DNA of 64,000 nucleotides from Eledone cirrhosa. Its lineage: Eukaryota. The notes beneath the pieces were generated by a model. That model was not told the DNA's origin and did not search any database. It saw only the letters and a program-made list of their open reading frames with translations. The DNA lies in assembly GCA_964016885.1 (NCBI GenBank), contig OZ024742.1, positions 256,308,001 to 256,372,000 on the forward strand. Reading direction: 5' to 3'. A program made the position numbers and the translations under genes. Numbering within the stretch: position 1 is the stretch's first letter; every line of letters starts with the position of its first letter. Of the stretch, positions 1 through 61,760 are shown piece by piece.

Positions 1-52
1 TATATATTTCAAGGGTACCAATACTTCGGTAAGCTTTCATCAGAAACAATAC
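1..52 (-). ncRNA. Type I hammerhead ribozyme motif (family E), cut by the window edge
   Basis: Minus strand reads tgtattgttt-CTGATGA-AAGcttacc gaagtatt ggtaccCTT-GAAA-tatata. Flanks and stem II resemble the complete copy at 39142-39205. Confidence 0.7.
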
Positions 53-21393: not shown

Positions 21394-21591
21394 CGTTATT
21401 CCGGGGTTGAATCGGAGGTAACCACAGTAAGTAAGGTACTCAATACATAGCAGAGTATAAACAGTTTTAATATAGATGAGATTCTACAGGGACTAGAATG
21501 TTTCATTCTTTAGAAATCATCAAAGATTCCTGATGATTTCTAAAGAATGAAACAGTTCTAGTCCTGTAGAATCTCATCTATATTAAAATTT
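21394..21591. mobile_element. Family A foldback HHR unit, copy 1
   Basis: About 195-bp unit starting cgttattcc...gttgaatcgg with an internal inverted repeat of about 58 bp. Repeated at 22199, 23621, 25478 and 30650. Confidence 0.85.
21524..21574 (+). ncRNA. Type I hammerhead ribozyme (family A)
   Basis: AGATTC-CTGATGA-tTTC taaa GAAt-GAAA-CAG ttctagtc CTG-TA/GAATCT. Stem I 6 bp, short stem II, stem III CAG/CTG, predicted cleavage after 21568. Confidence 0.88.
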
Positions 21592-22198: not shown

Positions 22199-22393
22199 CG
22201 TTATTCGGGTTGAATCGCAGGTAACCACAGTAAGTAAGGTACTCAATACATAGTAGAGTATAAAAGTTTTAATATAGATGAGATTCTACAGGACTAGAAA
22301 TGTTTCATTCTTTAGATATCATCAAAGATTCCTGATGATTTCTAAAGAATGAAACAGTTCTAGTCCTGTAGAATCTCATCTATATTAAAATTT
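22199..22393. mobile_element. Family A foldback HHR unit, copy 2 (HHR 22326-22376, plus strand)
   Basis: Same unit with an intact CTGATGA...GAAACAG...CTGTA/GAATCT. Confidence 0.85.
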
Positions 22394-22412
22394 ATATATA
22401 TATAGTATATAT

Positions 22413-22462
<50 letters not shown>

Positions 22463-22496
22463 ATATATATATATATATATATACAATATATATATA

Positions 22497-22543
<47 letters not shown>

Positions 22544-22556
22544 ATATATATATAAT

Positions 22557-22596
<40 letters not shown>

Positions 22597-22646
22597 ATAT
22601 ATATATATATATACATATATATATACAATATATATATATATATAAT

Positions 22647-22684
<38 letters not shown>

Positions 22685-22703
22685 ATATATATATATATAT
22701 ACA

Positions 22704-22762
<59 letters not shown>

Positions 22763-22847
22763 ATATATATACAATATATATATCTACAATATATATATAT
22801 ATATATGATATATTATATATATATATATATATATACAATATATACAT

Positions 22848-22926
<79 letters not shown>

Positions 22927-22994
22927 ATATATATATACAATATATATATATATATATATATAATAATATATATATAATATATATATATATATAC

Positions 22995-23037
<43 letters not shown>

Positions 23038-23091
23038 ATATATATATATATATATACAATATATATACATATATATATATATATATACTAT

Positions 23092-23131
<40 letters not shown>

Positions 23132-23241
23132 TATACAATATATATATATATATATATATACGATATATATATATATATACTATATATATACAATATATAT
23201 ATACTATATATAGATATATAAATATATAATATATATATACG

Positions 23242-23278
<37 letters not shown>

Positions 23279-23468
23279 CAATATATATATATATATATAT
23301 ACGATATATATATATATATATATATACGATATATATATATATATATATACGATATATATATAATATATATATATACAATATATATATATATATCGATATA
23401 TATTATATATATATAATATATACAATATATATATATACAATATATATAATATATATATATATATATAT

Positions 23469-23509
<41 letters not shown>

Positions 23510-23525
23510 CATATATATATATACA

Positions 23526-23556
<31 letters not shown>

Positions 23557-23620
23557 ATATATATATTTATATATATACAATATATATATATATAATATAT
23601 ATATATATTATATATATATA

Positions 23621-23780
23621 CGTTATTCCGGGTTGAATCGGAGGTAACCACAGTAAGTAAGGTACTCAATACATAGCAGAGTATAAAAGTTTTAATATAG
23701 ATGAGATTCTACAGGACTAGAAATGTTTCATTCTTTAGAAATCATCAAATATTCCTGATGATTTCTAAAGAATGAAACAG
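23621..23780. mobile_element. Family A unit, copy 3, truncated after GAAACAG
   Basis: Same sequence, ending inside stem III and followed by TA repeats of opposite polarity. Confidence 0.8.
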
Positions 23781-23816
<36 letters not shown>

Positions 23817-23851
23817 ATATTGTATAATATATATATTGTATATATATATAT

Positions 23852-23915
<64 letters not shown>

Positions 23916-23931
23916 GTATATATATATATAT

Positions 23932-23987
<56 letters not shown>

Positions 23988-24124
23988 GTATATATATATA
24001 TATATTGTATATATATATATATATATATATATTGTATATATATATATATATATTGTATATATATATATATATATTGTATATATATATTGTATATATATAT
24101 TTATATATATATATATATATATAT

Positions 24125-24170
<46 letters not shown>

Positions 24171-24331
24171 ATATATATATATATATATACAATATATATA
24201 TACAATATATATATATATATATACACTATATGTATATATATATACAATATATATATATATATATATACAATATATATATATATATATACAATATATATAT
24301 ATATATATATACAATATATATATATATATAC

Positions 24332-24393
<62 letters not shown>

Positions 24394-24409
24394 ATATATA
24401 TATATATAC

Positions 24410-24453
<44 letters not shown>

Positions 24454-24465
24454 ATATATATATAT

Positions 24466-24543
<78 letters not shown>

Positions 24544-24716
24544 CATATATATATATATATATATATACAATATATATATATATATATATACAATATACAT
24601 ATATATACATATATGTATATATATATATATATAATATATATATATATATATAATATATATATATATATACAATATATATATATATATATACAATATATAT
24701 ATATGTATATATATAT

Positions 24717-24752
<36 letters not shown>

Positions 24753-24788
24753 ATATATATATACAGTATATATATATATATATATACA

Positions 24789-24825
<37 letters not shown>

Positions 24826-24842
24826 CAATATGTATATATACA

Positions 24843-24901
<59 letters not shown>

Positions 24902-24911
24902 ATATATATAT

Positions 24912-24955
<44 letters not shown>

Positions 24956-25200
24956 ATATATATATATATATACACAATATATATATATATATATATATAC
25001 AATATATATATATATATATATACAATATATATATATATATATATACAATATATATATATATATATATATATACAATATATATATATATATATATATACAA
25101 TATATATATATATATATACGATATATATATATACGATATATATATATATATATATACGATATATATATATATATATATATACAATATATATATATATATA

Positions 25201-25245
<45 letters not shown>

Positions 25246-25255
25246 ATATATATAT

Positions 25256-25309
<54 letters not shown>

Positions 25310-25319
25310 ATATATATAT

Positions 25320-25365
<46 letters not shown>

Positions 25366-25374
25366 ATATATAAT

Positions 25375-25410
<36 letters not shown>

Positions 25411-25430
25411 ATATATATATTTATATATAT

Positions 25431-25469
<39 letters not shown>

Positions 25470-25477
25470 TATATATA

Positions 25478-25665
25478 CGTTATTCCGGGTTGAATCGGCC
25501 ACAGTAAGTAAGGTACTCAATACATAGCAGAGTATAAAAGTTTTAATATAGATGAGATCTACAGGACTAGAAATGTTTCATTCTTAGAAATCATCAAAGA
25601 TTCCTGATAATTTCTAAAGAATGAAACAGTTCTAGTACTGTAGAATCTCATCTATATTAAAACTG
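25478..25665. mobile_element. Family A unit, copy 4 (HHR 25598-25648 with a CTGATAA core)
   Basis: Same unit. G8>A change in the core; stem III extended to CAGT/ACTG. Confidence 0.8.
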
Positions 25666-25700
25666 ATATATATATATATATATATATACAATTATATATA

Positions 25701-25759
<59 letters not shown>

Positions 25760-25972
25760 TATACAATATATCTATATATATATATATACAATATATATAT
25801 TTATATATATATACAATATATATATACAATATATATATATATATATATACAATATATATATATATATATACAATATATATATATATATATATATACAATA
25901 TATATATATACACAATAAATATATATATATATAGTATATATATATATATATACAATATATATATATATATAC

Positions 25973-26012
<40 letters not shown>

Positions 26013-26493
26013 ATATATATATATATATACAATATATATATATGTATATATATATATATACAATATATATATATATATATACAATATATATATATGTATA
26101 TATATATATATACAATATATATATATATTATATCTATATATATATATATATATATATATACAATATATATATATATATATATATACAATATATATATATA
26201 TATATATATATACAATATATGTATATATATATATATATATACAATATATATATATATATATATATACAATATATGTATATATATATATATACAATATATA
26301 TATATATATATATATATACAATATATGTATATATATATATATACAATATATATATATATATATATATATACAATATATATATATATATATATATACAATA
26401 TATATATATATATATACAATATATATATATATATATATATATACAATATATATATATATATATAATACAATATATATATATATATATACAATA

Positions 26494-26528
<35 letters not shown>

Positions 26529-26794
26529 ATATATATACAATATATATATATATATAATACATTAGAAACACACAGATACATGCGGACAGACACATATATA
26601 CATGAATGCATCCGCACCCAACTGTGAGTTAAGGGTGCCAACTTCACCGATGTTGCTCAATGAATGACTGGGACAGACCAATTCAGTTGAACTAGACTGA
26701 ACCAGTATCAGAGTTAAAAATACATTATGAAGAGAGAAGAAACATTTAGATATAATTAGTAATAAAATGTATCATACCTAAACTGCTCCTAAAT

Positions 26795-26886
26795 TCCTCG
26801 ACTACGTAGTTTCGTGGCATAAACAAAAAACAATATATCATAAAGATATAGGAGTCCTTGCGAGGTCTGCCGACTTATCAAGAGGA
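26795..26886 (-). ncRNA. Type I hammerhead ribozyme, U3:A8 variant with expanded stem II (family B)
   Basis: Minus strand reads TCCTC-TTGATAA-GTcGGCA-(about 46-48 nt)-TGCCAC-GAAA-CTACGTAG-TC/GAGGA. Confidence 0.78.
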
Positions 26887-27656
26887 TACCTCATTTTACT
26901 AGTCTCAAGAACGCATCTACACGACGTGAGAAAGAATCCCAAAAGGCGGAGGGGGAGATAGTCACGCGATATAACGTGTCGAGAAACAGAGCTAAGCCTC
27001 TTATAACCTCGAAGAAAATACCACGGAGGCGGAGGGGTATTTATATCGAGGCCGCAGAAGAGGTGGTGAAGAAGGCGAGAAGTATGAGTAATGGAAGCTT
27101 TATATATATATATTGTTTTTATTTATGCCACGAAACTACGTAGTCGAGGAATTTAGGAGCAGTTTAGGTATGATACATTTTATTACTAATTATATCTAAA
27201 TGTTTCTTCTCTCTTCATAATGTATTTTTAACTCTGATACTGGTTCAGTCTAGTTCAACTGAATTGGTCTGTCCCAGTCATTCATTGAGCAACATCGGTG
27301 AAGTTGGCACCCTTAACTCACAGTTGGGTGCGGATGCATTCATGTATATATGTGTGTGTCCAGCATTGTATCTGTGTGTTTCTAAATATATTGTTAATAA
27401 CTCCCTCTGGTCGAGCAATCTTTGTAGTGTGGGGGCAGCTGGAAAGCTTCCATTACTCTTACTTCTCGCCTTCTTCACCACCTCTTCTGCGGCTCGATAT
27501 AAATACCCCCTCCGCCTCCGTGGATATTTTCTTCGAGGTTATAAGAGGCTTAGCTCTGTTTCTCGACCGTTATATCGCGTGACTATCTCCCCCTCCGCCT
27601 TTTGGGATTCTTTCTCACGTCGTGTAGACGCGTTCTTGAGACTAGTAAATGAGGTA

Positions 27657-27744
27657 TCCTCTTGATAAGTCAGCAGACCTCGCAAGGACTCTATATCTTT
27701 ATGATATATTGTTTTTGTTTATGCACGAACTACGTAGTCGAGGA
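27657..27744 (+). ncRNA. Family B hammerhead motif (copy with small indels)
   Basis: TCCTC-TTGATAA-gtcagca...tgcac-GAA-CTACGTAG-TC/GAGGA. One A of GAAA is missing, possibly a sequencing error. Confidence 0.65.
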
Positions 27745-27882
27745 ATTTAGGAGCATTTAGGTATGATACATTTTATTAATAATTATATCTAAATGTTTCT
27801 TCTCTCTTCATAATGTATATATATATATATATATATATATACAATAATATATATATAAATATATATAACAATATATATATAT

Positions 27883-27934
<52 letters not shown>

Positions 27935-27953
27935 TATATATATACAATATATA

Positions 27954-28027
<74 letters not shown>

Positions 28028-28064
28028 ATACAATATATATATATACAAATATATATATACAATA

Positions 28065-28095
<31 letters not shown>

Positions 28096-28169
28096 CAATA
28101 TATATATTATATATATATACAATATATATATATATATATATATACAATATATATATATATACTATATAT

Positions 28170-28201
<32 letters not shown>

Positions 28202-28215
28202 CAATATATATATAT

Positions 28216-28259
<44 letters not shown>

Positions 28260-28337
28260 ATATATATATATATATACAATATATATATATATATATATAT
28301 AGATGTTATATACATTATATATATATATATATATACA

Positions 28338-28380
<43 letters not shown>

Positions 28381-28491
28381 ATATATATATATACAATATA
28401 TATATATATACAATATATATATATATACCTATATATATATTATATACAATATATATATATATACAATATATATATATGTATATATATATAT

Positions 28492-28531
<40 letters not shown>

Positions 28532-28624
28532 ATATATATATATATACAATATATATATATATATACAATATATATATATATATATATATATAGAATATAT
28601 ATATATAATATATATATACATATA

Positions 28625-28665
<41 letters not shown>

Positions 28666-28688
28666 ATATATATATATATATACATATA

Positions 28689-28764
<76 letters not shown>

Positions 28765-28784
28765 GTATATATATATATATATTG

Positions 28785-28835
<51 letters not shown>

Positions 28836-28874
28836 GTATATATATATATATATTGTATATATATATATATATAT

Positions 28875-28930
<56 letters not shown>

Positions 28931-29074
28931 GTATATATATATATATATTGTATATATATATATATATATATTGTATATATATATATATATATTGTATATA
29001 TATATATATATATTGTATATATATATTGTATATATATATATATATATATATTGTATATATATATTGTATATATA

Positions 29075-29157
<83 letters not shown>

Positions 29158-29275
29158 ATATATATATATATATATACAATATATATATACAATATATATA
29201 TATATATATATACACTATATATATATATATATACAATATATATATAATATATACAATATATATATATATATATAC

Positions 29276-29309
<34 letters not shown>

Positions 29310-29340
29310 TATATATATATACAATATTATATATATATAC

Positions 29341-29406
<66 letters not shown>

Positions 29407-29418
29407 ATATATATATAT

Positions 29419-29460
<42 letters not shown>

Positions 29461-29623
29461 AATATATATATTATATATATACAATATATATATACAATAT
29501 ATATATATATATATACACTATATGTATATATATATACAATATATATATATATATATATACAATATATATATATATATACAATATATATATATATATATAT
29601 ATACAATATATATATATATATAC

Positions 29624-29700
<77 letters not shown>

Positions 29701-29727
29701 ATATATATATGTATATATAATATATAT

Positions 29728-29777
<50 letters not shown>

Positions 29778-29795
29778 ATATATATATATTTATAT

Positions 29796-29835
<40 letters not shown>

Positions 29836-29956
29836 ATATATATATACAATATATATATATATATATATATATACAATATATATATATACAATATATATAT
29901 ATATATATATATATACAATATATATATATACAGTATATATATATATATATATATAT

Positions 29957-29996
<40 letters not shown>

Positions 29997-30076
29997 CAAT
30001 ATGTATATATACAATATATATATATATATATAATATAATATATATATATATATATATATATACAATATATATATAT

Positions 30077-30118
<42 letters not shown>

Positions 30119-30211
30119 ATATATATATATATATATACACAATATATATATATATATATATACAATATATATTATATATATATATACAATATATATATAT
30201 ATATATATACA

Positions 30212-30242
<31 letters not shown>

Positions 30243-30319
30243 ATATATATATATATATATATACAATATATATATATATATATACGATATATATATATAT
30301 ATACGATATATATATAATA

Positions 30320-30352
<33 letters not shown>

Positions 30353-30367
30353 ATAAATATATATATA

Positions 30368-30400
<33 letters not shown>

Positions 30401-30410
30401 ATATATATAT

Positions 30411-30449
<39 letters not shown>

Positions 30450-30525
30450 TATATACAATATATATATATACAATATATATATATATATATATATATCTAT
30501 ATATATATATACAATATATATATAT

Positions 30526-30561
<36 letters not shown>

Positions 30562-30581
30562 ATATATATATTTATATATAT

Positions 30582-30649
<68 letters not shown>

Positions 30650-30650
<1 letters not shown>

Positions 30651-30845
30651 GTTATTCCGGTTGAATCGGAGGTAACCACAGTAAGTAAGGTACTCAATAC
30701 ATAGCAGAGTATAAAAGTTTTAATATAGATGAGATTCTACAGGACTAGAAATGTTTCATTCTTTAAAAATCATCAAAGATTCCTGATGATTTCTAAAGAA
30801 TGAAACAGTTCTAGTACTGTAGAATCTCATCTATATTAAAACTGA
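30650..30845. mobile_element. Family A unit, copy 5 (intact HHR 30777-30827, plus strand)
   Basis: AGATTC-CTGATGA-tttctaaagaat-GAAA-CAGT tctagt ACTG-TA/GAATCT. Confidence 0.85.
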
Positions 30846-30866
30846 TATATATATATATATATATAT

Positions 30867-30954
<88 letters not shown>

Positions 30955-31096
30955 ATATATATATATATATATATATACAATATATATATATATATATATA
31001 CAATATATATATACAATATATATATATATATACAATATATATATATATATATACAATATATATATATATATATATATATACAATATATATATATAC

Positions 31097-31146
<50 letters not shown>

Positions 31147-31162
31147 ATATATATATATATAC

Positions 31163-31208
<46 letters not shown>

Positions 31209-31302
31209 ATATATATATATACAATATATATATATGTTATATATATATATACAATATATATATATATATATACAATATATATATATGTATATATATATAT
31301 AT

Positions 31303-31342
<40 letters not shown>

Positions 31343-31536
31343 ATATATATATATATATACAATATATATATATATATATATATATACAATATATGTATAT
31401 ATATATATATATACAATATATATATATATATATATATACAATATATGTATATATATATATATACAATATATAATATATATATATATATACAATATATGTA
31501 TATATATATATATACAATATATATATATATATATAT

Positions 31537-31576
<40 letters not shown>

Positions 31577-31645
31577 ATATATATATATATATATATACAA
31601 TATATATATATATATAATATACAATATATATATATATATATATAT

Positions 31646-31691
<46 letters not shown>

Positions 31692-31721
31692 ATATATATA
31701 CAATATATATATATATATAAT

Positions 31722-32977
31722 ATATTTAGAAACACACAGATACATGCGGACAGACACATATATACATGAATGCATCCGCACCCAACTGTGAGTTAAGGGT
31801 GCCAACTTCACCGATGTTGCTCAATGAATGACTGGGACAGACCAATTCAGTTGAACTAGACTGAACCAGTATCAGAGTTAAAAATACATTATGAAGAGAG
31901 AAGAAACATTTAGATATAATTAGTAATAAAATGTATCATACTAAACTGCTCCTAAATTCCTCGACTACGTAGTTTCGTGGCATAAACAAAAACAATATAT
32001 CATAAAGATATAGAGTCCTTGCGAGGTCTGCCGACTTATCAAGAGGATACCTCATTTTACTAGTCTCAAGAACGCATCTACACGACGTGAGAAAGAATCC
32101 CAAAAGCGGAGGGGGAGATAGTCACGCGAAATAACGGTCGAGAAACAGAGCTAAGCCTCTTATAACCTCGAAGAAAATACCACGGAGGCGGAGGGGGTAT
32201 TTATATCGAGGCCGCAGAAGAGGTGGTGAAGAAGGCGAGAAGTATGAGTAATGAAGCTTTATATATATATATTGTTTTTATTTATGCCACGAAACTACGT
32301 AGTCGAGGAATTTTAGGAGCAGTTTAGTATGATACATTTTATTACTAATTATATCTAAATGTTTCTTCTCCTCTTCATAATGTATTTTTAACTCTGATAC
32401 TGGTTCAGTCTAGTTCAACTGAATTGTCTGTCCCAGTCATTCATTGAGCAACATCGGTGAAGTTGGCACCCTTAACTCACAGTTGGGTGCGGATGCATTC
32501 ATGTATATATGTGTGTGTCCCGCATGTATCTGTGTGTTTCTAAATATATTGTTAATAACTCCCTCTGGTCGAGCAATCTTTGTAGTGTGGGGCCAGCTGG
32601 AAAGCTTCCATTACTCATACTTCTCGCCTTCTTCACCACCTCTTCTGCGGCCTCGATATAAATACCCCCTCCGCCTCCGTGGTATTTTCTTCGAGGTTAT
32701 AAGAGGCTTAGCTCTGTTTCTCGACCGTTATATCGCGTGACTATCTCCCCCTCCGCCTTTTAGGATTCTTTCTCACGTCGTGTAGACGCGTTCTTGAGAC
32801 TAGTAAAATGAGGTATCCTCTTGATAAGTCGGCAGACCTCGCAAGGACTCTATATCTTTATGATATATTGTTTTTGTTTATGCACGAAACTACGTAGTCG
32901 AGGAATTTAGGAGCAGTTTAGGTATGATACATTTTATTAATAATTATATCTAAATGTTCTTCTCTCTTCATAATGTA
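31722..32977. mobile_element. Family B element, second copy (HHRs at 31958-32047 minus and 32816-32904 plus)
   Basis: Near-identical to 26562-27817. Predicted cleavage sites at 32304 and 32899 are 595 nt apart. Confidence 0.85.
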
Positions 32978-33048
32978 TATATATATATATATATATATAT
33001 ACAATATATATATATATATATATATACAATATATATATATACAAATAT

Positions 33049-33097
<49 letters not shown>

Positions 33098-33107
33098 ATA
33101 TATATAT

Positions 33108-33197
<90 letters not shown>

Positions 33198-33234
33198 ATA
33201 TATATATATATATATACAATAATATATATATACA

Positions 33235-33307
<73 letters not shown>

Positions 33308-33362
33308 ATATATATATATATATTAGATGTATATATACAATATATATATATATATATATACA

Positions 33363-33397
<35 letters not shown>

Positions 33398-33514
33398 CAA
33401 TATATATATATACAATATATATATATATACAATATATATATATATACTATATATATATATATACAATATATATATATATATATACAATAATATATATGTA
33501 TATATATATATACA

Positions 33515-33553
<39 letters not shown>

Positions 33554-33711
33554 ATATATATATACAATATATATATATATACTATATATATATATATATA
33601 CAATATAATATATATATATATACAATATATATATATATATATATATACTATATATATATATATATACAATATATATATATATATATACAATATATATATA
33701 TATATATATAT

Positions 33712-33755
<44 letters not shown>

Positions 33756-33812
33756 ATATATATATATATACAATATATATATATATATTCTATATATATA
33801 TATATATATATA

Positions 33813-38570: not shown

Positions 38571-39088
38571 AAGTATGTATACGTACATACAAATATGTAT
38601 ACAGACGTACAGTAGTATGTATATATATATATACATACATGCACACATATATATATATGTACGTATGGATTCACCGAACATTTATTATAATGCTCGGTGT
38701 GTTTGTAAACACACATCCCGAATTAAGCCGTAGTGTCTAGTAACCATCGTTGCTCATTTGTTCAACACTGATAAAGGAACGCTGTACAAGTTTCAAGCTT
38801 ATTAGCTATCGTCTGCAACGAATACTTTCCTTCCAGTTGGTTGAACGTCTGAAAGTATATAATTTCCGTATGCATATTAACGGCTGAGCAGCCTAATTTG
38901 CATATCGAATGAGTTAATCGGCCGGGGTACCGAAAACGATAAACGGAAAAAATGAAATGTGTGCATGTATGTATATATATATACATACTACTGTACGTCT
39001 GTATACATATATGTATGTACTTATACATACTTATATTTAAGTAACAGCCGTACTAAGAGTGACAAATGAAATTTCATTTTTTCCGTTT
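38571..39088. mobile_element. Family D element, diverged copy with a short inverted arm (HHR 38780-38820 minus, mutated core CAGACGA)
   Basis: Homologous to 59551-60988. Confidence 0.8.
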
Positions 39089-39141
39089 ATATATATATAT
39101 ATAAGCGTGTATGTCAATATTTATTTATCAAACAAATTTGT

Positions 39142-39205
39142 ATTTTATCTGATGAAAGCGCACCATAATTTGCCTTGGTTGCCCTTGAAATATATATCAT
39201 AAAAT
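39142..39205 (+). ncRNA. Type I hammerhead ribozyme (family E)
   Basis: ATTTTAT-CTGATGA-AAGcGCACCA taatttgcct TGGtTGCcCTT-GAAA-TATATA-TC/ATAAAAT. Stem I 7 bp perfect. An inverted partial copy lies at 38345-38454. Confidence 0.88.
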
Positions 39206-39274: not shown

Positions 39275-41625
39275 ATTGAACAGGGACAGAACAGAGAGGC
39301 AGTACTATAAATGTTTATTAAATTCACGCTCAGGAGAGTGGGGGGTAGGTGGGGGACGACGTTTCGGGCATAAGCCCTTCTTCAGGTTAGAAGTGTGTGG
39401 GAACAGAGTTCAAAAGTTGTGTAGGGGAGTGGTGGAGAGACATATACCGAATGGAAACGGTGCGAATGAAAAATTAACAAATAAAGACAAAAAATATAAT
39501 AAATAATAAATAAAAAATAAATAAAAATAAAGCATGATCAAAATACAAGGAAAGAGAAAATTTAAAAATAAAGGCATGATCAAAATAAACTTAAATTAAA
39601 AGGGGGGTAAACAGGTGGTGGAAGGGTGTGGGGTGAGTAGGGTGGTGGCGGGTGGAGTGGGGAGAGGGAGACGGGGTGTCCGAGCGGGGAGGGCTGAAGG
39701 TGGTATGTGTGGTTAGGTGTGCGTGTGTGTGTGTGTGTGTGTGTATGTGAAAGTGAGGGTTGGGGGAAGAACGGGGTTGCATGTTCAGGAAGGTGTGTGT
39801 GGGGGGTGTTTTTGTGGGTCGGAGTGTCTGTGCGTGTGTGGATAGGGGGGTGGGGGGAGAGGAATCAGGAGGCTGAGGGTGTAAATATGTGGTGGGAAGC
39901 ACGTGTGTGTGGTTTAAGCGTGTTGTGGGTGTGGGTGGCGTGTGGATAAAAAAAAAATTGGGGGGGTGTGTGTGTGGGTGAGTTATATAGGTGATGGGGT
40001 AAGAGGATGGTTGAAAAGTTGGTAAGCTCCACGGATGTTTGGAGATTTTGGTTAGAAGTCAATATCGCGTGTGGGTAATCCAAGAAGCGGTGGTCGGAAG
40101 AGGAGAGATGTGGGGTGCGCGCGCAACAGGAAGTGGTCAGCAGTGGGAGTGCTGTGTGGTCAGTTGGTGCTGAGACAGTGGTCGGAAGGGCATAGCAGCA
40201 GTCGGCAGAATGGTAGGGAGGCGAGGATGGGTAGGTGTGAGAGTTGGAGTGAGGAGGGTGTGTGTGTGTGTGTGTGTGTGTGTATTAGTAGGGGTGTTAG
40301 TGGGAGGAGTGAGTGTGGAGCGGGGAGAGAAGGGTGTGTGTGGTTCTATGGAGGGAGTGTGGTGTACTGGTGTGTGTGTAGTTTGGTGAAGAGGTGTTAG
40401 TGGGTGTTAGTATAGGGGGGTGGGGAGGGGTGGAATGCAGGTGTGAGTGGGGGTAGGTGGGGGTAGGGTGTGTAGAGTTGGTGGTGTACGAGGGTGTGTG
40501 GGTATGTGTGCGTGGGGTTAGAGGGTGCTAGTGATGTTAGTTGCGTGTGGGGTGGGTGGTGTAAGTGGGTGCGTGTGTGCGTGTGATAAGGAGGGGGAGG
40601 AGAAGAGGGGAGGGAAGGGATGTTAGTATGTTAGTTGGGGAAGGGTGGTCAGATGAGGGGTGGAGTGGAGGTGTTAGTATTGTTAGTGTGGGGTGGGCGG
40701 TGAAAAGGAGGGGTGTGTTAGTGGTGTTAGTGGGGGATAAGTGTGGGGCGAGGGGGGCGGTCGAACGCTAAAGGAATAAGGGTGGGGAGTTCAGGCCGGG
40801 GGGAGTGTGGGTCTGTAAGATGAAGATAGTGCGTTGTTCGACCGTAAGGCCATGGGCGGGTGTTCCGTGGCACTGGAGTAGGCCACAGACTGTGAGATGG
40901 CGTGCGGAGTGTCCAGGGCCACCAAAGTGGCGGGCGATGGGGGAACTGCCCCCGAGACGAATATCCCGGAGGTGCTCCGTGACTCGGTCCGCCAGGCGAC
41001 GTCCCGTCTGTCCGACATAAGTCGCGCTGCACTCCGTGCAACGAAGTCCGTAGACTAGGTTGGAGGAGGTGCAGCGGAAGGCATGCCGGACCGTGAGAGG
41101 GTGGCCGTTGGGACCCTGGAAGGTGCTGGTGTTGGTGATGTGGGGACAGGTGTTGCAGCGGAGCCTAGAACAGGGGAAGGAACCGGGGGGGACCCGGAGC
41201 GTGGGTTGGGGGGTAGGGAGCTGTGAACGAGGAGGGTGCGGAGATTGCGTGCGCGTTTGAAGGAGGGGAGTGGTGGGGTTGGGAAGATGTGGGAGGTGGA
41301 GGAGTCGGACTGGAGGCGTCGGAAGAGGCGGCGGATGGTGCGGTGGAGGGGTAAGGGGGGGTGTGAGGGTGGTGGAGCGGGGGATAGCACGGGCGCGGGT
41401 GAGAGCGGTGTGGACGAGAGAGGTGGGGGTAACCTCTGCGGATGAAATGGCTGACTAGGGAAAGGGCCTGGGACTCGAAGTCAGCATCTCGGCTACAGAG
41501 GCGGCGGATCCTGAGAAGTTGGGAGTAGGGAATGGAGAGTTTAGTGGGGGTGTGGTGGGAAGAGGTGAAGTCGAGGTAAGAGTGGGAGTCGGTGGGTTTG
41601 AAGAAGGCGGAGGTGACGAGGGAGC
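39275..41625 (-). mobile_element. 5'-truncated Neptune-like Penelope-like element (RT thumb, Cys linker, GIY-YIG, long C-rich 3' UTR)
   Basis: Minus strand reads FFKPTDSHSYLDFTSSH...SIPYSQLLRIRRLCS, FKRARNLRTLLV, PCSRLRCNTCPH and CTSSNLVYGLRCTECSATYVGQTGRRLADRVTEH...PPGLN. Stop at 40768. Confidence 0.9.
39358..39385 (-). ncRNA. Minimal HHR-like core in the Neptune-like pLTR (family F)
   Basis: CTGAAGA-aGGGC ttat GCCC-GAAACGTC. Stem I is only about 2 bp, so it may be non-functional. Confidence 0.65.
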
Positions 41626-44378
41626 ATTAAGAGAAGGATATTATCTAGGTATTTACGACCGTTTCATTGGTAAGTGCAAACTTATATTGCTATACTGCAA
41701 ATAGCAGCCACTCAATTATTGTTCACAGTCCAAATTTTCAAAAATAGTAAGTTACTCTTGAAATAATTCTTAATTTATAGAGAAACACATTTATTTGGAA
41801 TTGTATTTACTAGTATAGAGAGAGAGGAATCAGGTGAGGGGACAAACGGAATCGTATAGAGAGAGAGGAAGAGGGAAGAGGTAGGAAGTAGAGTGACAAA
41901 CTGAGATGGCGGGAGGGGTGGAGGTGAAAGGATTCCTTGGTCAGTTTTGATAGCAGACTTCATGTCGTGGAATGTAGTGAGTTAAAGAGAATTACATTCA
42001 TCATAGTGGCAGGGATGGAGAGAGAGGGAGAGAGAGAGGGGGAGATATAAAGAGATAAATGTATATATATATATATAAAATAAAGATAAAGATAATAAGG
42101 ACAAAAATAAAAGCAAAGAAGGGGGTGAGAAAGAAGAAAAGAAAAGATAGCCAAGAAGGGGAGGGAAGGAAGGAAGAAAATGAAGAAATAGAAGAGGAAT
42201 GAGGCAGAAGAGAGGGATATATGTATTGCTTTTGTGGGTAATTAAAAGGGTTTAGATACAACTAAAGGGTATAAAGTCTAAGTATATGCAGTTTGTCGGT
42301 TGGTAGTAAGAGGTTAAGGGTTCGATTTGTAGTGCGAAAACTTCTCTTTGAGTCTATGGTTACAATAAATAGATCTTTCGATTATATTTCTGAGTAACTT
42401 ATTCTTCGAACTTAAGATGTGCAACAGCTCAAGGTCGCATAATCGACAGCTTCTCATACCACTCCGATATGGGCGCGCGTTCGATAATTGTTTCCACTTC
42501 AGGGTGTATTGATGGTTGCTTTGCCTCAGTTGCTAGGTCTAGTTTGCAAGGGTAGTTACATAACGGTGCTGGGAATGTTTCATTGCTTAACGGTGTGTAT
42601 ACCAACGGGCTTTAAATGTATTCCCAGTCGCTACGATGTTATACCATTTCTGGTTGTCTGATTCCACTGTGCATTGGTAAACCAGATTAGACTGCATACA
42701 TTAATTATGTAATGGACAGGTTTCAGGTAGGTGGCAGTTACATTTCCTGTCATGGGCAACTTTGGCATTATTTCTGGGCTGCGATGCCTGTACAAGTGTG
42801 TTAAGTTGTGTTTGCCTATTAGCGGGTTGTTGTGTATTAGATATTCTGTTGTGTTCGGTGGTAATTGTATTGTTATTGTTGTAAATTTGTGTTTTGTTTT
42901 GTTATGTATCTTTTTAGCGTTAAGCATCTTAATGTGTGCCTCTATATTTCGTGCCGTGGAGTAAAATAGTCTAATAGATTGTGTTAAGGATTTTGCTGTA
43001 TATATGTGAATCTGGAAAGTGCTTATTTATTATTCTAAAGAAGATAGAGGGTAGGTTAGTACTGATAGAGGTGTTAAATATGGGGTTATACCAAATATAT
43101 GTTCTACTGCGTGACTTGTTTGATTTCGATGTTGTATTTCTATTTGCCGTATACTTTGCAGTTCTATGCGTAAGTGCGTGTGTGCGTGTGTTACCGGAGT
43201 TTGTGTTATGCGTGTTCGTGTGCGCTTCACGGAGGCTTTCATCTATATATTCCACTCTATCTAAGTGGCCTGCCTTGTCTAATGCGGTATTGTAGTATTC
43301 TGCATGTTCTTCGAAGATTTGTTGGTTAGACGAAAGGCGGGAGATCGTAAGGGATATGCTTCGTGGAATGGATTTAATTATGGATAATGGATGGTTTGAG
43401 TTACAGTTGATGTATGCTAAGTTTTCATTAATCTTGTGAAAAGGTCGTATTTAGGTTAAGCGTCACGTCTAGAAAGTTAACTGTTTTAGTGCTATACTCA
43501 TACGTTATGCTAAAGCCTAGTTTTCCGAGAGTCATTCTAATATTCTTACGGAGTCTTTCTATGCTCTGGTTATTTAGGTTCTTAACTAGGAGAAGGGCGT
43601 CGTCTTTGTAGATTCCACCGTGAAGGTCGCTAAACTCACTTTGTAAACTATGGGCTATGTAAATACCTACTAAATTGAGCCGAATTGTTAGCTCCCATCG
43701 TGTTTAAGTTATTTAATCTATCCTTACGTTCCCAATAGGCGTTTTCAAATTTAATTATAATTTTCCTAGCAGCTAATATGATTTTTATCTCGTCGTCTGT
43801 TATGTCAGAATTGGTTTTGGCGAATGCTAAGGCTTTATACAAGTTGTTGGGGGATATAGATGAGTAATAATCGTTAATGTCAAATTGTGTAAATTTAGAT
43901 GCTACTTTGTTAGCTATATTGTTAAACCACTTAATTGTTTCGGTAGCGTTACCCATAGTTTAATCACTAGTTTATTCTTCATTTGTGCTATAACTCTGTC
44001 TAATATATATTTACTAATTTTCCCGATGTCCGATTTGGATGAGCATATAAGTCTAATTGTGGGGTTATAATCAAAATTTACCTTGTGGTCCTTGAGGTTA
44101 CATGTGGGGGTACATGGCCTAAGTGGCTCCGTTCTGTCGTCTATTCCTAGGTGTTTGACTATATTGTGTGCCTCGTTGTTGATGTTTATCAGTGTCGCCT
44201 CATTTGTTTTTTTGTATTTCCTATGTAATTCCTTCCGTATGAAGCTATTGTATGTATTAACATCCATCGTATACACATTTGATGTTTTGTCCGCTTTGAC
44301 AATAATTCCATTGGTGGTTGGCAGCTTTTTTAGGAATGTATTTATGTCATTCTGGAGTTTATTATTCCTCCGCTTTTT
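41626..44378 (-). mobile_element. Naiad-like Penelope-like element, 5'-truncated and disrupted
   Basis: Motifs KADKT, LKDHKVNFDYNPTIRLI, IGKISK, WFNNI, FTQFDINDYYSSIS, MGANNSAQ, GIYKDDAL (43599-43610) and IWYNPIFN. These are followed by a CNC..CP..C GIY-YIG domain with a CxLC...CNH tail. Confidence 0.88.
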
Positions 44379-45328
44379 GAATAATAAATAAGCACTTTCC
44401 AGATTCACATAGATACACCAAAATCCTTAACACTAAATCTATTAGACTATCTTACTCCACGGCACCAAATATAGAGGCACACATTAAGATGCTTAACGCT
44501 AAAAGATACATAATAACACCAAAACACAAATTTACAACAATAACAATACAATCACCACCGAACACAACAGAATATCTAATACACAACCACCGCTAATAGG
44601 CAAACAAAACGTAACACTTGTACAGGCATCGCAGCCCAGAAATAATGCCAAAGTTGCCCATGACAAGAACTGTAACTGCCACCTACCTGAAGCCTGTCCA
44701 TTACATAATGAATGAATGCAGTTTGACCTGGTTTTACCAATGCACAGTGGAATCAGAAAACCAGAAAAGGTATTACATCGGAGCGACTGGGAATACATTT
44801 AAAACCCGTTGGTATACACACCGTTACGCAATGAAACATTCCCAGCACCGTTATGTAACTACCCTTGCAAACAAGACCAAGCAACTGAGGTAAAGTAACC
44901 ATCAATACACTCTGAAGTGGAAAAATTATCGAACGCGCCCCAATATCGGAGTGGTATGAGAAGCTGTCGATTATGCGACCTTGAGCTGTTCCACATCTTA
45001 AGTTCGAAGTATACGTTACTCAACAATAAAATCGAAAGATCTATCTATTGTAACCATAGACTCAAAGAGAAGGTTTCGCACTACAAATCAAACCCTTTAC
45101 CTCTTACTACCAACTGACAAACTGAATATACTTAGACTTTATACCCTTTAGTTGTATCTAAACCCTTTTAATTACCCACAAAAGCAATACATATATCCCT
45201 CTCTTCTGCCTCATACCTCTTCTATTTCTTCGTTTTCTTCCTTCCTTCGCTCCCCTTCTTGTTATATTTTCTTTTCTTCTTTCTCACCCCCTTCTTTGTT
45301 TTTATGTTTGTCATTTTATCTTTATCAT

Positions 45329-48147: not shown

Positions 48148-48380
48148 AATTAGTAATAAAATGTATCATACCTAAACTGCTCCTAGATTCCTCGACTACG
48201 TAGTTTCGTGGCATAAACAAAAACAATACATCATAAAGATGTAGAGTCCTTGCGAGGTCTGCCGACCTATCAAGAGGATACCTCATTTTACTAGCCTCAA
48301 GAACGCGTCTACACGACGTGAGAAAGAATCCCAAAAGGCGGAGGGGGAGATAGTCACGCGATATAACGGTCGAGAAACAG
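48148..48380 (-). mobile_element. Family B fragment, diverged (HHR 48189-48278)
   Basis: Homologous to 26755-26990. Core TTGATAG; loop II hairpin tacatc/gatgta. Confidence 0.85.
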
Positions 48381-49489
<1,109 letters not shown>

Positions 49490-49944: not shown

Positions 49945-50452
49945 TCTAACACACACACCCACATACCCACCCACTCGCAACCCCATCATTTGCCGCTACT
50001 CTCTACGCTATAGAATATGTACGGATAGTGGCTGCAAATTCACCCATTTACCTAGGACAAAACGGTCTATCCCCACAAACAGCCACCACCATAATACATA
50101 CTCTAATTTAACACCAACACAACCACCAATAACTCAAACAAGGAATCCACAAATCTGCCGCTTTTCCCTGCGAGACAGATTGTGTTTAGACCGGGATTGT
50201 CCCTTTACCCATCTCCCGGGGACCCGTCGGACAAATGAAAATAAAATTAAAAATAAAAGCAAAAACAAAAACCATAATCTAGATAAAAATAACCACTACC
50301 ACAGTCACCAACAGTCTTCTAAACAGGAAACTTCTTCCTCTTTTTTAGCCATAATGAATCTGGCAAAAGAACTGGAAAAAAACATTCGAGCTATCACCCA
50401 GCACCACTCTCCACTATCACCCCACTGCACAAACTCCCATTGCTGCCATTAA
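49945..50452 (+). CDS. CR1-like LINE ORF1 C-terminal part with two CCCH-type fingers (5'-truncated)
   Basis: CRYSLRYRICTDSGCKFTHLP and CRFSLRDRLCLDRDCPFTHLP (C-x8-C-x4-C-x3-H), directly upstream of ORF2. Confidence 0.7.
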
Positions 50453-53142
50453 CAAACAAACAAATTAACAACACACCAAAACAATTAAAACCATCCACTC
50501 TCGCCTCTACATTTTTGCTTAACGCCCAAGGCATCAGCCCTTCCACCAATACTCAAAAATGGAAGATCAAATTCCTGGAGGACTGGATTGATGTCCATCC
50601 AAACCACATCCCTTTCTTCGTCCTCACTGAAACCCATCTCAGTAACCTCCACTTGGAAGCCGAGGTGAAAGTGAAAAATTTCAAAGCCATCCGTGCTGAT
50701 CGCGCTGGCAGAAGAAAGGGCGGGACTGCCAATTATGTCCATAATTCTTTCTCAACAGAGGCTATGAACATATTCACTAATGGATACTGCGAAGCAGTCA
50801 CTGTATTCAGTCAAACCAACAACCTAATAGTAGTTGGGCTCTATAGGCCACCCCAAACGCCTGTACCATGCTTCAAGGAATGCCTCAACAGCATAAAGTG
50901 TTTCATCCAAGAGTGTCACCCTGACAACATCTTAATGATGGGGGACTTCAACCTCCCCGGAGTTGACTGGTCCACAAACAGCCTGCCATCAGGTTCTTCT
51001 GCCTCAACCTCTGACAGGGAAGCAGTGGAATCGCTTCTTGACTTCATGGATGATTTCTTCCTATCCCAACTGGTGCTCGAACCAACGAGGTGCCACAAAA
51101 ACGTCCTAGACTTAATTTTCAGCAATCACACTGACAATATCCACAATATTGCAGTGGAGAAAACTCTACTCTCTGATCATGACATGGTTCTCTGTGATCT
51201 GAGATTCCACCGTCCAATATACAAACCCAATGTCATATCTCCTGTCCATCCGTTTGACGCTATGGATTCCCACAATGCAAACTGGGAAGCGATCAGTCAT
51301 GATCTTGCACATGTCGACTGGTCCTTCACGCACACTCATACACCCACTAACATCAAAATGTCCTGGCAGACATTTGTGGACACTGTTACAAACATATGTG
51401 CAAAACACACCCCATTAAGAACTATAAACAAATCTAAGAGAAGAATCCCTAGAAATAGAAAAACGCTCATCAGAAAAATTAAGAGAACGAACAAAAAATT
51501 CAACAAGCTGAAATACCGTCAGCAGCAACACATCAACTTGACTGCCATTTCATCACTAGAGATTAATAAACATAACCTCCAAAACAACATAATGTCTCTC
51601 ATCAACAATCAGAGAAGAGCTGAAGAGGCCTGGGCCATTGAGAAGATCAAACTCAATCCCAAAGTGTTCTTTTCACTTGCAAAAAAACACAAAATCACTG
51701 GCTCTACTGTTGGCCCTCTAATTGATGAAAATGGCACTCTTCAAGACAATGCTAAAACCATGGGTGAGATACTGCAGAAACAATACTGCTCTGTTTTCAG
51801 CAATCCTGATATGGCCGATCTGGGCTGTATCGGCGATGTTACTCCCCATTACACCTTATCGGACATAACGTTTGGCGCCCCTGATGTCTTAGCGGCAATA
51901 AAGGAAATCAAGCATAATTCAGCAGTAGGTCCCGATAGGTTCCCTGCTTGTGTCTTGAAGGCGTGTCAACACCAACTTGCATCTCCTCTTGCCAATCTGT
52001 GGCGGAACTCACTGGATGCTGGATATGTACCAGAAAACCTTCTATCCCAGTCTGTTGTCCCAGTTTTCAAAAAAGGAAACAAATCCCTTGCCGTGAATTA
52101 CCGTCCAATCTCACTCACCTCTCATATCATTAAGGTATTTGAGAGAGTGGTGAGATCGCGAATGACCCACTTCCTTGAGAGTAACAATATGGTGAACTCC
52201 AACCAGCATGGATTCCGTAATGGAAGGGATTGCCTGACGCAGCTACTGCATCACTTTGATGACATTTTGAGAGCCTTGGGAGAGGGTTCCAACACTGATG
52301 TTATCTACCTTGATTTCAGCAAGGCCTTTGACAGGGTTGATCATAACATTCTACTAAGAAAACTGTCCAATATTGGTGTCACTGGAAAGCTGCTGCAGTG
52401 GACCAAGAGCTTCCTGTCAAACAGAACCCAACATGTTGTAGTTGAAGGAGTCAAATCCAGCCCAGCCAAAGTCAGTAGTGGGGTCCCACAAGGCACTGTG
52501 TTGGGCCCACTTCTCTTCATCATCTATATTAATGACATCACTGACATCATCAAACACAGCAACATTAAAATTTTCGCTGATGATTCCAAGCTCCAAAAGG
52601 TCATCAATGGCGTGGATAACCGGATAAGCCTTCAGTCAGACCTACTGGCTGTTACCCAATGGGCGGAAAAGAACAACATGTTACTGAACGAAGACAAATT
52701 CGAACTGATCCACTTTGGAAAAGAGGATGCTCTGAAACTCCCGTACTCCCTTCCCTCCGAGGAAACTCTCGTGGCATCTAACAACATCAGAGACTTGGGA
52801 GTAACCGTGGACAGCAACATAAGCTGGGCCACGCATATAAGCAGCAAACTTGACATGGCCCGCAGAATGTGTTCCTGGATCCTCAGAACCCTCCAGTCGA
52901 GAGATTCTCACACTATTATCCTTCTCTTCTCTACTTTTGCCCGACCACACCTTGAATACTGTTGTCCACTGTGGTCTCCCCACACGAAACAAAGTATCAT
53001 GAAACTTGAAGCTCCTCAAAGGGCAATCACGAAAAAGATAGATGGCATGTCAGACCTTGACTACTGGGGTCGACTATTTTATTTTTTTGAGTTTTATTTT
53101 CCATACCACTGTCTGTACACAATCACACTCCTCCCCAAGTAA
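50440..53142 (+). CDS. CR1-like LINE ORF2 (APE endonuclease plus reverse transcriptase); homology ends near 53075
   Basis: 900-aa open frame with LLNAQG, LTETHL, YRPP, MGDFNLP, LDLIF, SDHD, NYRPISLTS, QHGFR, YLDFSKAFD, SGVPQGTVLGPLLF, FADDSK, RDLGV and RPHLEYC. Confidence 0.93.
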   Translation: MLPLTNKQINNTPKQLKPSTLASTFLLNAQGISPSTNTQKWKIKFLEDWIDVHPNHIPFFVLTETHLSNLHLEAEVKVKNFKAIRADRAGRRKGGTANYVHNSFSTEAMNIFTNGYCEAVTVFSQTNNLIVVGLYRPPQTPVPCFKECLNSIKCFIQECHPDNILMMGDFNLPGVDWSTNSLPSGSSASTSDREAVESLLDFMDDFFLSQLVLEPTRCHKNVLDLIFSNHTDNIHNIAVEKTLLSDHDMVLCDLRFHRPIYKPNVISPVHPFDAMDSHNANWEAISHDLAHVDWSFTHTHTPTNIKMSWQTFVDTVTNICAKHTPLRTINKSKRRIPRNRKTLIRKIKRTNKKFNKLKYRQQQHINLTAISSLEINKHNLQNNIMSLINNQRRAEEAWAIEKIKLNPKVFFSLAKKHKITGSTVGPLIDENGTLQDNAKTMGEILQKQYCSVFSNPDMADLGCIGDVTPHYTLSDITFGAPDVLAAIKEIKHNSAVGPDRFPACVLKACQHQLASPLANLWRNSLDAGYVPENLLSQSVVPVFKKGNKSLAVNYRPISLTSHIIKVFERVVRSRMTHFLESNNMVNSNQHGFRNGRDCLTQLLHHFDDILRALGEGSNTDVIYLDFSKAFDRVDHNILLRKLSNIGVTGKLLQWTKSFLSNRTQHVVVEGVKSSPAKVSSGVPQGTVLGPLLFIIYINDITDIIKHSNIKIFADDSKLQKVINGVDNRISLQSDLLAVTQWAEKNNMLLNEDKFELIHFGKEDALKLPYSLPSEETLVASNNIRDLGVTVDSNISWATHISSKLDMARRMCSWILRTLQSRDSHTIILLFSTFARPHLEYCCPLWSPHTKQSIMKLEAPQRAITKKIDGMSDLDYWGRLFYFFEFYFPYHCLYTITLLPK

Positions 53143-57590: not shown

Positions 57591-59550
<1,960 letters not shown>

Positions 59551-59756
59551 AAGTATGTACACGTACATACATATATGTATACAGACGTACAGTTATATGT
59601 ATATATATATATACATACATGCACACATATATATATGCACGTATGGATTCACCGAACATTTATTATAATGCTCGGTGTGTTTGTAAAAAAACATCCCGTA
59701 TTAAGCCGTAGTGTCGAGCAAACATCGTTGCTCTTTTGTTCAACACTGACAAAGGA

Positions 59757-60989: not shown

Positions 60990-61760
<771 letters not shown>

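Follow-up and report, generated by a model that had tools for sequence, protein, structure and literature searches.

A type I hammerhead ribozyme motif in which the core pair C3:G8 is replaced by U3:A8 occurs once per unit of a tandem repeat of ~590 bases, present in ~6,800 copies genome-wide, and the insertions of this repeat consist of near-identical units that carry an array-wide excess of A>G substitutions and end at two paired positions. We lean towards reading each insertion as the DNA record of one circular RNA that was primed at two sites and copied in a rolling fashion, by which ADAR edits of the RNA would have become heritable. The U3:A8 pair is itself known, and its surroundings, the insertion record, matter more than the core variant.

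The motif lies on the minus strand of the window (the whole 64,000-nucleotide stretch analysed), where it reads from 26886 to 26795 as UCCUC-UUGAUAA-GU(C)GGCA-(48 nt)-UGCCAC-GAAA-CUACGUAG-UC/GAGGA, as the first-pass annotation had described it. Compared with the hammerhead consensus used here (C3 U4 G5 A6 N7 G8 A9 / G12 A13 A14, A15.1-U16.1, H17), three stems surround a core that follows the consensus except for the exchange of C3:G8 for U3:A8. In an alignment of 71 distinct family sequences, from which five chimeric or mis-bounded matches were excluded and to which the copy at 48189 was added, stems I, II and III were paired in 96, 96 and 99% of cells, with stem I open. U3 and A8 are present in 5/5 full copies in the window (Table 1), and a covariance model of the 71 family sequences located two additional 3' half-copies at inversion junctions. 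These five full copies do not count as independent, since positions 26604-27815 and 31768-32975 are 98% duplicates with an identical inversion junction, and the window therefore holds two independent insertions. The copy at 48189-48278 has G at the conserved core position 9 (A9G), which was overlooked at first pass. One stem II C is missing from each plus-strand copy, and the copy at 27657 also lacks one A of GAAA; these small deletions may be decay or assembly error. Searching Rfam over the window gave no match at gathering level, and the 10 weak unrelated hits at E ≤ 10 included no hammerhead model, as expected from the altered core and the long insertion. The earlier prediction that standard searches overlook the motif was thus borne out, the family being invisible to CUGANGA patterns as well. 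Judged from its sequence, we regard the ribozyme motif as real, a predicted self-cutting RNA that is probably functional.

Table 1. Coordinates of the hammerhead motif, its parts and the insertions that carry it in the window.
Feature	Positions	Strand	Description and basis
Type I hammerhead motif, U3:A8 core (full copy)	26795..26886	-	Sequence and family covariance model
Stem I, 5' strand UCCUC	26882..26886	-	Pairs with GAGGA at 26795-26799; sequence, pair counts
Core U3 U4 G5 A6 U7 A8 A9	26875..26881	-	U3 at 26881, A8 at 26876, A9 at 26875; sequence, genome counts
Stem II, 5' strand GU(C)GGCA	26868..26874	-	Bulged C; pairs with UGCCAC at 26814-26819
Stem II insertion, 48 nt	26820..26867	-	One long imperfect hairpin (~26824-26860) plus internal loop to stem II
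G12 A13 A14, then 10-nt palindrome ACUACGUAGU (stem III)	26801..26813	-	Intermolecular 10-bp helix in dimer is predicted
Predicted cleavage/ligation site	26799..26800	-	C17 (26800) / G1.1 (26799), unit position 1; hammerhead consensus applied to sequence
Arm 1 of head-to-head insertion	26555..27101	-	Unit 294-591, then 1-247; ends at ~245 site against (TA)n
Arm 2 of head-to-head insertion	27108..27818	+	Unit 554-591, one full unit, then 1-80; ends at ~80 against (TA)n
Hammerhead with indels inside arm 2 (full copy)	27657-27744	+	
Local duplicate of the two-armed insertion	31718..32978	.	Full hammerhead copies 31958-32047 (-) and 32816-32904 (+)
Independent truncated copy	48148..48381	-	Unit 406-591, then 1-46; full hammerhead copy 48189-48278, A9G

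Pattern counts over the 3.0-Gb genome, whose content points to an animal, indicated that U3:A8 is the family state. The U3:A8 core with its own stem III had 6,802 matches and its reversed control 0, well above what chance would give, against 0 genome matches for the C3:G8 version (CTGANGAG ahead of the same stem III), and the CTGATGA consensus that would have contradicted the first-pass reading was not seen. With fixed flanks, 6,599 wild-type matches stood against 11 non-U3, 12 non-A8, 26 non-A9 and 8 non-U7; core variants thus number 8-26 copies each, compared with 744 for a C>U variant of the stem II bulge, which adjoins the core. Single-site counts alone are no proof of selection, as the tolerant position 7 shows equal invariance; they show only that no core variant was amplified. 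We also considered A9G as an amplified or editing-hotspot lineage and rejected it, the 26 non-A copies being at scattered loci, 13 of them with G. No relatives with a short stem II or a C3:G8 core were found, the few matches being deletion or junction derivatives of this family.

Old copies also bear on the earlier claim that the variant is selected. When an old subfamily was matched with the core left unspecified (194 matches), U3 was present in 99 and A8 in 99 of the 100 matches listed. A comparison of 27 old copies with the young families showed differences in 111 of 564 columns, 0/21 in the core and stem III and 110/522 elsewhere (p = 0.012), such that conservation of core and stem III points to selection. 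Most other loci were picked by patterns requiring an intact core, and their lack of core changes therefore counts for nothing. The implied novelty of the U3:A8 pair did not survive comparison with the literature, as it is already published as a natural variant (PMC3088659; PMC4209133); natural instances described in the available text of these papers include several for which in vitro activity is reported (Perreault 2011, PMC3088659) and ~1,300 U3-A8 hits in Schistosoma mansoni (Cervera and de la Pena 2014, PMC4209133).

The stem II insertion was best described as a single long hairpin, CAAGGAC..UAUAUC-UUUAU-GAUAUA..GUUUUUG, which is 87.8% paired over 15 pairs and has a predicted pairing probability of ~1, with pairing kept mostly via A-U/G-U exchanges and two central pairs usually open. 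This hairpin takes the place of the two mini-hairpins proposed earlier, of which cct-cgca-agg is 68% paired at a predicted probability of ~0; its two C-G pairs are broken in 28/71 and 39/71 sequences, and it is broken in older subfamilies. The tacatc/gatgta double change in the 48189 copy, previously offered as covariation, is present and makes poor covariation evidence, given that gatgta is a common subfamily state (U-G in 35/71) and that T>C alone, a change likely private to this copy, sets it apart from that subfamily. Covariation did appear in the larger alignment at the subfamily level, in stem I (UA 59, UG 7, CG 4) and in the distal hairpin, where the pair flagged at first pass was UG in 35, UA in 24 and CG in 7. 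The covariation score of the whole structure was reached by 0/500 shuffles, which is supportive only, since related sequences can beat shuffles without structure. Copies without the distal hairpin were rare (3 of 4 matches to the short-insertion pattern), and the conserved 48-nt hairpin may act as a protein-binding arm or stand in for the contact between loops I and II. Unconstrained folding of the monomer predicted a partly or wholly inactive fold and not the active hammerhead, and cofolding of two copies gave a double hammerhead with a 10-bp stem III (−60.9 kcal/mol vs. 2 × −23.6). With its palindromic stem III, the ribozyme is predicted from these models to cleave as a dimer.

The repeat that carries the motif has the organization of a non-LTR retrozyme. 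Units are arranged head to tail without terminal repeats, which argues against LTR organization, and each has one type I hammerhead. Cleavage sites in head-to-tail tandem units are spaced 581-607 nt apart, mostly 591-595 nt (the whole unit is also given as 591-597), arrays extend up to 15 units and beyond, and the longest sense ATG-ORF in the unit is 75 aa, making it non-coding. Two very long head-to-head arrays were observed at G000:C1:193445944-193454016 and 193981881-194000613, with 15 and >30 units by spacing. The predicted circular minimum energies of three units were −168 to −174, compared with −137 to −142 for shuffles (sd ~6), making the circular folds ~5 SD more stable than 20 shuffles. 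Base composition shifted from old to young subfamilies, A from 136 to 121 and G from 96 to 113, and no B box (Pol III promoter) was found in the retrozyme. Two contigs from four sequencing runs of unrecorded kind, one of 620 nt (X4, depth 8) that loops back on itself by 593 nt and one of 621 nt at similar depth (X6), were rejected as evidence of RNA because trace DNA of a tandem repeat would give the same picture. We classify the element as a non-LTR retrozyme that probably depends on a Penelope-like enzyme, its hammerhead being a U3:A8 variant.

Insertions terminated at two preferred sites. Their 3' ends fell at unit position ~80 in 62 cases, at ~245 in 48 and elsewhere in 4, and not at the cleavage site; TA-rich DNA followed the 3' end in 83/100 and 61/79 cases, indicating a bias towards (TA)n microsatellites. 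Old copies share the ~80 and ~245 ends. Among 59 head-to-head junctions, to which two locally duplicated loci supply two each, 51 paired an 80 with a 245 end, compared with 1 for 80/80 and 0 for 245/245, while 4 involved another end and 3 were cut by the locus edge. The window's own insertion obeys the 80/245 rule. The insertions thus show the Penelope-like traits of 5' truncation, tandem and inverted arrangement and a tail confined to one end. An autonomous partner was not found when one Penelope-like family (30 loci) and the window fragments were compared, nor was there any terminal-repeat similarity to an autonomous element in the same material, and hits to Penelope-like fragments near retrozyme loci looked incidental. 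The abundant GIY-YIG element in the window was rejected as a partner, as it has its own minimal C3:G8 hammerhead and no similarity to the unit.

That GIY-YIG element, a Penelope-like element that we take to be Neptune-like, occupies 39330-41626 on the minus strand with its hammerhead near 39385, and had 63,797 first-look candidates, one with a 1,022-aa open frame at G000:C1:437218666. Broken reverse-transcriptase-like fragments at 42971-44426 (-) had no Pfam hit and presumably resemble Naiad-type Penelope-like reverse transcriptase, and an open frame of 939 aa at 50323-53142 (+), with domains for endonuclease and reverse transcriptase, represents a LINE-type element. At 59547-60990 and 38659-39087 lies a second family of tandem retrozymes, with units of 420 nt whose hammerhead is of the canonical C3:G8 type (CUGACGA...GAAACUAGUAC); its arms are likewise inverted and its 3' ends fixed at two sites (unit ~216 and ~272), and a first look counted 2,702 candidates genome-wide. 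Yet another repeat family contributes CUGAUGA...GAAA motifs, which may be hammerheads of the minimal kind, at 39130-39200 (+), at 1-70 (-) and in the flank of locus L002. The region 22393-33812 is a ~11-kb (TA)n/(TATACAA)n array that contains nested insertions; within it the retrozyme-bearing block is duplicated at ~5.16 kb spacing, either a real duplication or an assembly artefact. A ~195-nt repeat in the (TA)n array (21394-21590, 22199-22392, 23621-23781, 25478-25665 and 30650-30844) ends in a long hairpin that overlaps a CUGAUGA...GAAAC hammerhead-like core.

We then compared units within and between retrozyme insertions. Unit pairs within a locus (n = 32) differed at 0-7 nt with a median of 1, compared with a median of 18 between loci, and units of one long array (L010) differed from each other at 5-7 positions. 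Substitutions common to all units of an insertion covering the site were classified as array-wide and otherwise as unit-private. In a first set of 61 young loci (52 with overlapping units), with 12 overlapping or window loci left out, the array-wide A>G:T>C ratio on the RNA strand was 35:12 (expected A share 0.38, p = 5 × 10−7) and the unit-private ratio 22:21, with A>G accounting for 22/226 private changes. A second set of 20 loci, newly fetched by means of a C>T marker and having a lineage in common with four first-set loci, gave 9:3 array-wide (p = 0.013) and 0:10 unit-private, with A>G at 0/30. In these youngest arrays (L105-L124), T>C (10) and G>A (6) made up most of the 30 private changes, as wobble misincorporation by reverse transcriptase, their probable source, would produce.

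Polarizing changes on a parsimony tree of 52 loci, with two loci having unrelated neighbouring copies also dropped, yielded 110 array-wide events, comprising A>G 44, T>C 11, G>A 17 and C>T 18, from which a skew of ~6-fold per site was computed; A>G made up 4/81 unit-private changes in the same analysis. A second tree gave A>G 43/106 and T>C 12, with A>G at 31/75 on terminal and 12/31 on internal branches. Recurrent A>G changes were found at unit positions 340 (5 times), 395 (4), 107 and 277 (3 each). Where both inverted arms covered a testable A>G site, G was present in both in 28/31. Some A>G changes formed haplotypes specific to one insertion. The A113G+A114G haplotype was shared by seven units of an insertion with 7 A>G among its array-wide differences and occurred nowhere else genome-wide, A114G alone being found at four other loci on a different background and A113G alone nowhere in the genome; A25G+A30G+A40G was likewise limited to two units of a single insertion genome-wide. 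A sequencing or polishing artefact was rejected as the source of the skew because the skew tracks the element strand and is common to arms on opposite genomic strands. The 420-nt family, which has the same architecture with C3:G8, had 2 A>G among 15 array-wide changes at 29 loci, a small sample chosen by similarity to the window copy.

Sequence context and pairing of the changed adenosines were assessed against the known neighbour preference of ADAR, in which 5' G is depleted, 3' G is enriched and sites lie in helices. G preceded 2/28 changed and 25/107 unchanged adenosines (one-sided p = 0.042), with another site set giving p = 0.13 (two-sided) for 5'-G depletion, and 3'-G was not significant. 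Predicted pairing of changed adenosines was 0.68 vs. 0.58 (p = 0.085); these shifts run the way ADAR preference would predict, and clustering of A>G on branches was not significant (p = 0.21). The genome contains adenosine-deaminase (PF02137) genes, one with an ADAR-like active-site sequence.

From what the sequences show directly, namely the motif and its tandem unit, their copy numbers, flanking (TA)n, paired 3' ends, near-identity of units and the A>G excess, we propose a mechanism that we consider reasonably probable, in which a U3:A8 retrozyme is cleaved as a dimer, likely circularized, likely edited by ADAR and likely copied by rolling-circle reverse transcription into (TA)n by a Penelope-like enzyme. 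Tandem copies would be transcribed by read-through, and neighbouring ribozymes would join via their 10-nt palindromes and cleave at GUC/GAGGA. The released monomer would be ligated to a circle, which would stay stable because a lone monomer is prone to misfolding, and some adenosines of the circle would be deaminated (A-to-I). Both strands of the cut target would then prime cDNA on one RNA, at ~80 and ~245, and each cDNA would round the circle a variable number of times. With two primers and one circular template, every unit of both arms would inherit the same inosine-derived G.

The spectrum of changes is consistent with this sequence of events. Reverse-transcription errors would be private to one pass, DNA mutation would be approximately strand-symmetric, and tolerance of G-U pairs would favour C>T as well. 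A single RNA change read on every pass would explain the departure from each of the three, and such changes are known to be made on RNA by A-to-I editing. On this sequence-based reasoning the A>G excess likely reflects ADAR editing of a circular template followed by two-primer rolling-circle reverse transcription, though a source locus absent from the assembly could explain a single-insertion haplotype. Counting against the mechanism are the predicted inactive monomer fold, the weak ADAR context, the non-significant clustering on branches, the lack of skew in the 420-nt family and the lack of a partner among the elements compared, together with reports, in the available text, that Penelope-type ribozymes cleave weakly (PMC4209133) and that 1/9 Xenopus retrozyme dimers cleaved (bioRxiv 2026.07.22.740005).

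Three other explanations were weighed. That this is an ordinary functional retrozyme, in which the A>G excess stems from selection or from transcription-linked DNA mutation in few source loci, is unlikely but carries the most weight among them. Replacing A-U by G-U keeps helices, and in the predicted circle U is the partner of 18/28 changed adenosines, yet unchanged adenosines pair equally often (65/107), and wobble tolerance predicts more C>T than G>A where 18 and 17 were seen. The rise of G and fall of A from old to young subfamilies and the weak ADAR neighbour signal fit this explanation, as does the transcription-associated A>G strand asymmetry of animal germlines, while the equal A>G share on terminal and internal branches, the limitation of multi-site clusters to single insertions and the ~6-fold skew per site do not.

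It is improbable that the arrays were grown or homogenized in DNA by unequal crossing-over and gene conversion, or copied from linear multimers, with the ribozyme as a passenger and no circle. DNA-level homogenization would spread a spectrum resembling that of private changes and not strand-specific A>G, editing of a linear multimer would vary between units, variants are common to inverted arms (28/31), and the core is kept across ~20% divergence. Local duplications do exist (the window block, L049 and L104), the L010 units differ by 5-7, an anole Penelope-like element is reported to insert in vitro without ribozyme cleavage (PMC11167929), and a local-amplification model is discussed in the available text of bioRxiv 2026.07.22.740005. 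Least credible, and very improbable in our judgement, is that U3:A8 with the long insertion is a non-cleaving, decayed hammerhead serving as a structural signal for the mobilizing enzyme. All other core positions, the cleavage triplet and the palindrome are kept, core variants reach 8-26 copies vs. 744 for the bulge variant adjoining the core, and U3:A8 ribozymes are reported active in vitro (PMC3088659); such decay would nonetheless accord with the predicted misfolding of the monomer, the lack of an evident canonical loop I/loop II contact and reports, in the portion available, that many predicted retrozymes are inactive in vitro (bioRxiv 2026.07.22.740005).

The preferred reading, editing of a circular template copied from two primers, bears on a circular-template model for retrozymes and Penelope-like elements that has so far rested on analogy. 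This young family, of ~6,800 hammerhead copies that escape Rfam and CUGANGA searches, supplies countable genomic evidence in the form of identical units, variants across inverted arms and near-strict pairing of 3' ends, and suggests that marks of RNA editing re-enter germline DNA on a large scale. If true, A-to-I editing would account for ~40% of lineage changes in the element, more heritable variation than any other single source, and the two-primer, rolling-circle retrotransposition so far hypothesized for animal retrozymes would be directly documented in the genome. Literature screening, which covered titles and abstract openings and mostly fell outside subscription journals, found neither editing fixed in retrozyme or retroelement copies nor two-primer insertion of Penelope-like elements, and the available text of two papers names editing merely as a possible source of retrozyme RNA heterogeneity (PMC7229834; PMC4918200). 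We consider the novelty of the editing and two-primer record provisional.

The element resembles metazoan non-LTR retrozymes as far as these are described in the available text of PMC7229834 (Cervera and de la Pena 2020) and bioRxiv 10.64898/2026.07.22.740005 (Li, Clavereau and Pollet). It is non-coding and tandemly repeated, each unit holding one type I hammerhead; its G+C is low (0.42), its circle is predicted to be highly paired, its copies number in the thousands, and its ~590-nt unit falls inside their range of 51-972 bp. Tandem cDNA from a circular template is the mechanism proposed for them in the same sources. The present retrozyme departs from them in its U3:A8 core and in the 48-nt hairpin of stem II; fixed, paired 3' ends and array-wide A>G are not encountered in the accessible parts of those descriptions. 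The Penelope-like signature (Craig et al. 2021, PMC8557442) is similar in its tandem or inverted 5'-truncated copies, (TA)n and one-end tail, although the tail is ~165 nt here and 30-40 nt there according to the text available, and the Penelope-like enzyme of Frangieh et al. (2024, PMC11167929) is comparable in having two internal reverse transcription starts and extending both DNA strands. In contrast to Penelope-like elements as these sources portray them, the retrozyme unit has no ORF, and both arms carry molecule-specific variants.

The closest ribozyme counterparts are the Penelope-like hammerheads of Schistosoma mansoni (PMC4209133), which, in the available text, share U3-A8, the short stem I, G10.1-C11.1, the enlarged bulged helix II, the palindromic helix III and the dimer-dependent design. 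The present motif differs in its full 10-nt stem III palindrome and much longer stem II hairpin, and belongs to a young, homogeneous, non-autonomous tandem unit, in contrast to the heterogeneous single motifs described there. The same compensatory pair was reported by Perreault et al. (2011, PMC3088659) along with palindromic stem III dimers, including a 10-bp stem in Aedes, and the several scattered examples in the available part of that work compare with a family of ~6,800 copies here.
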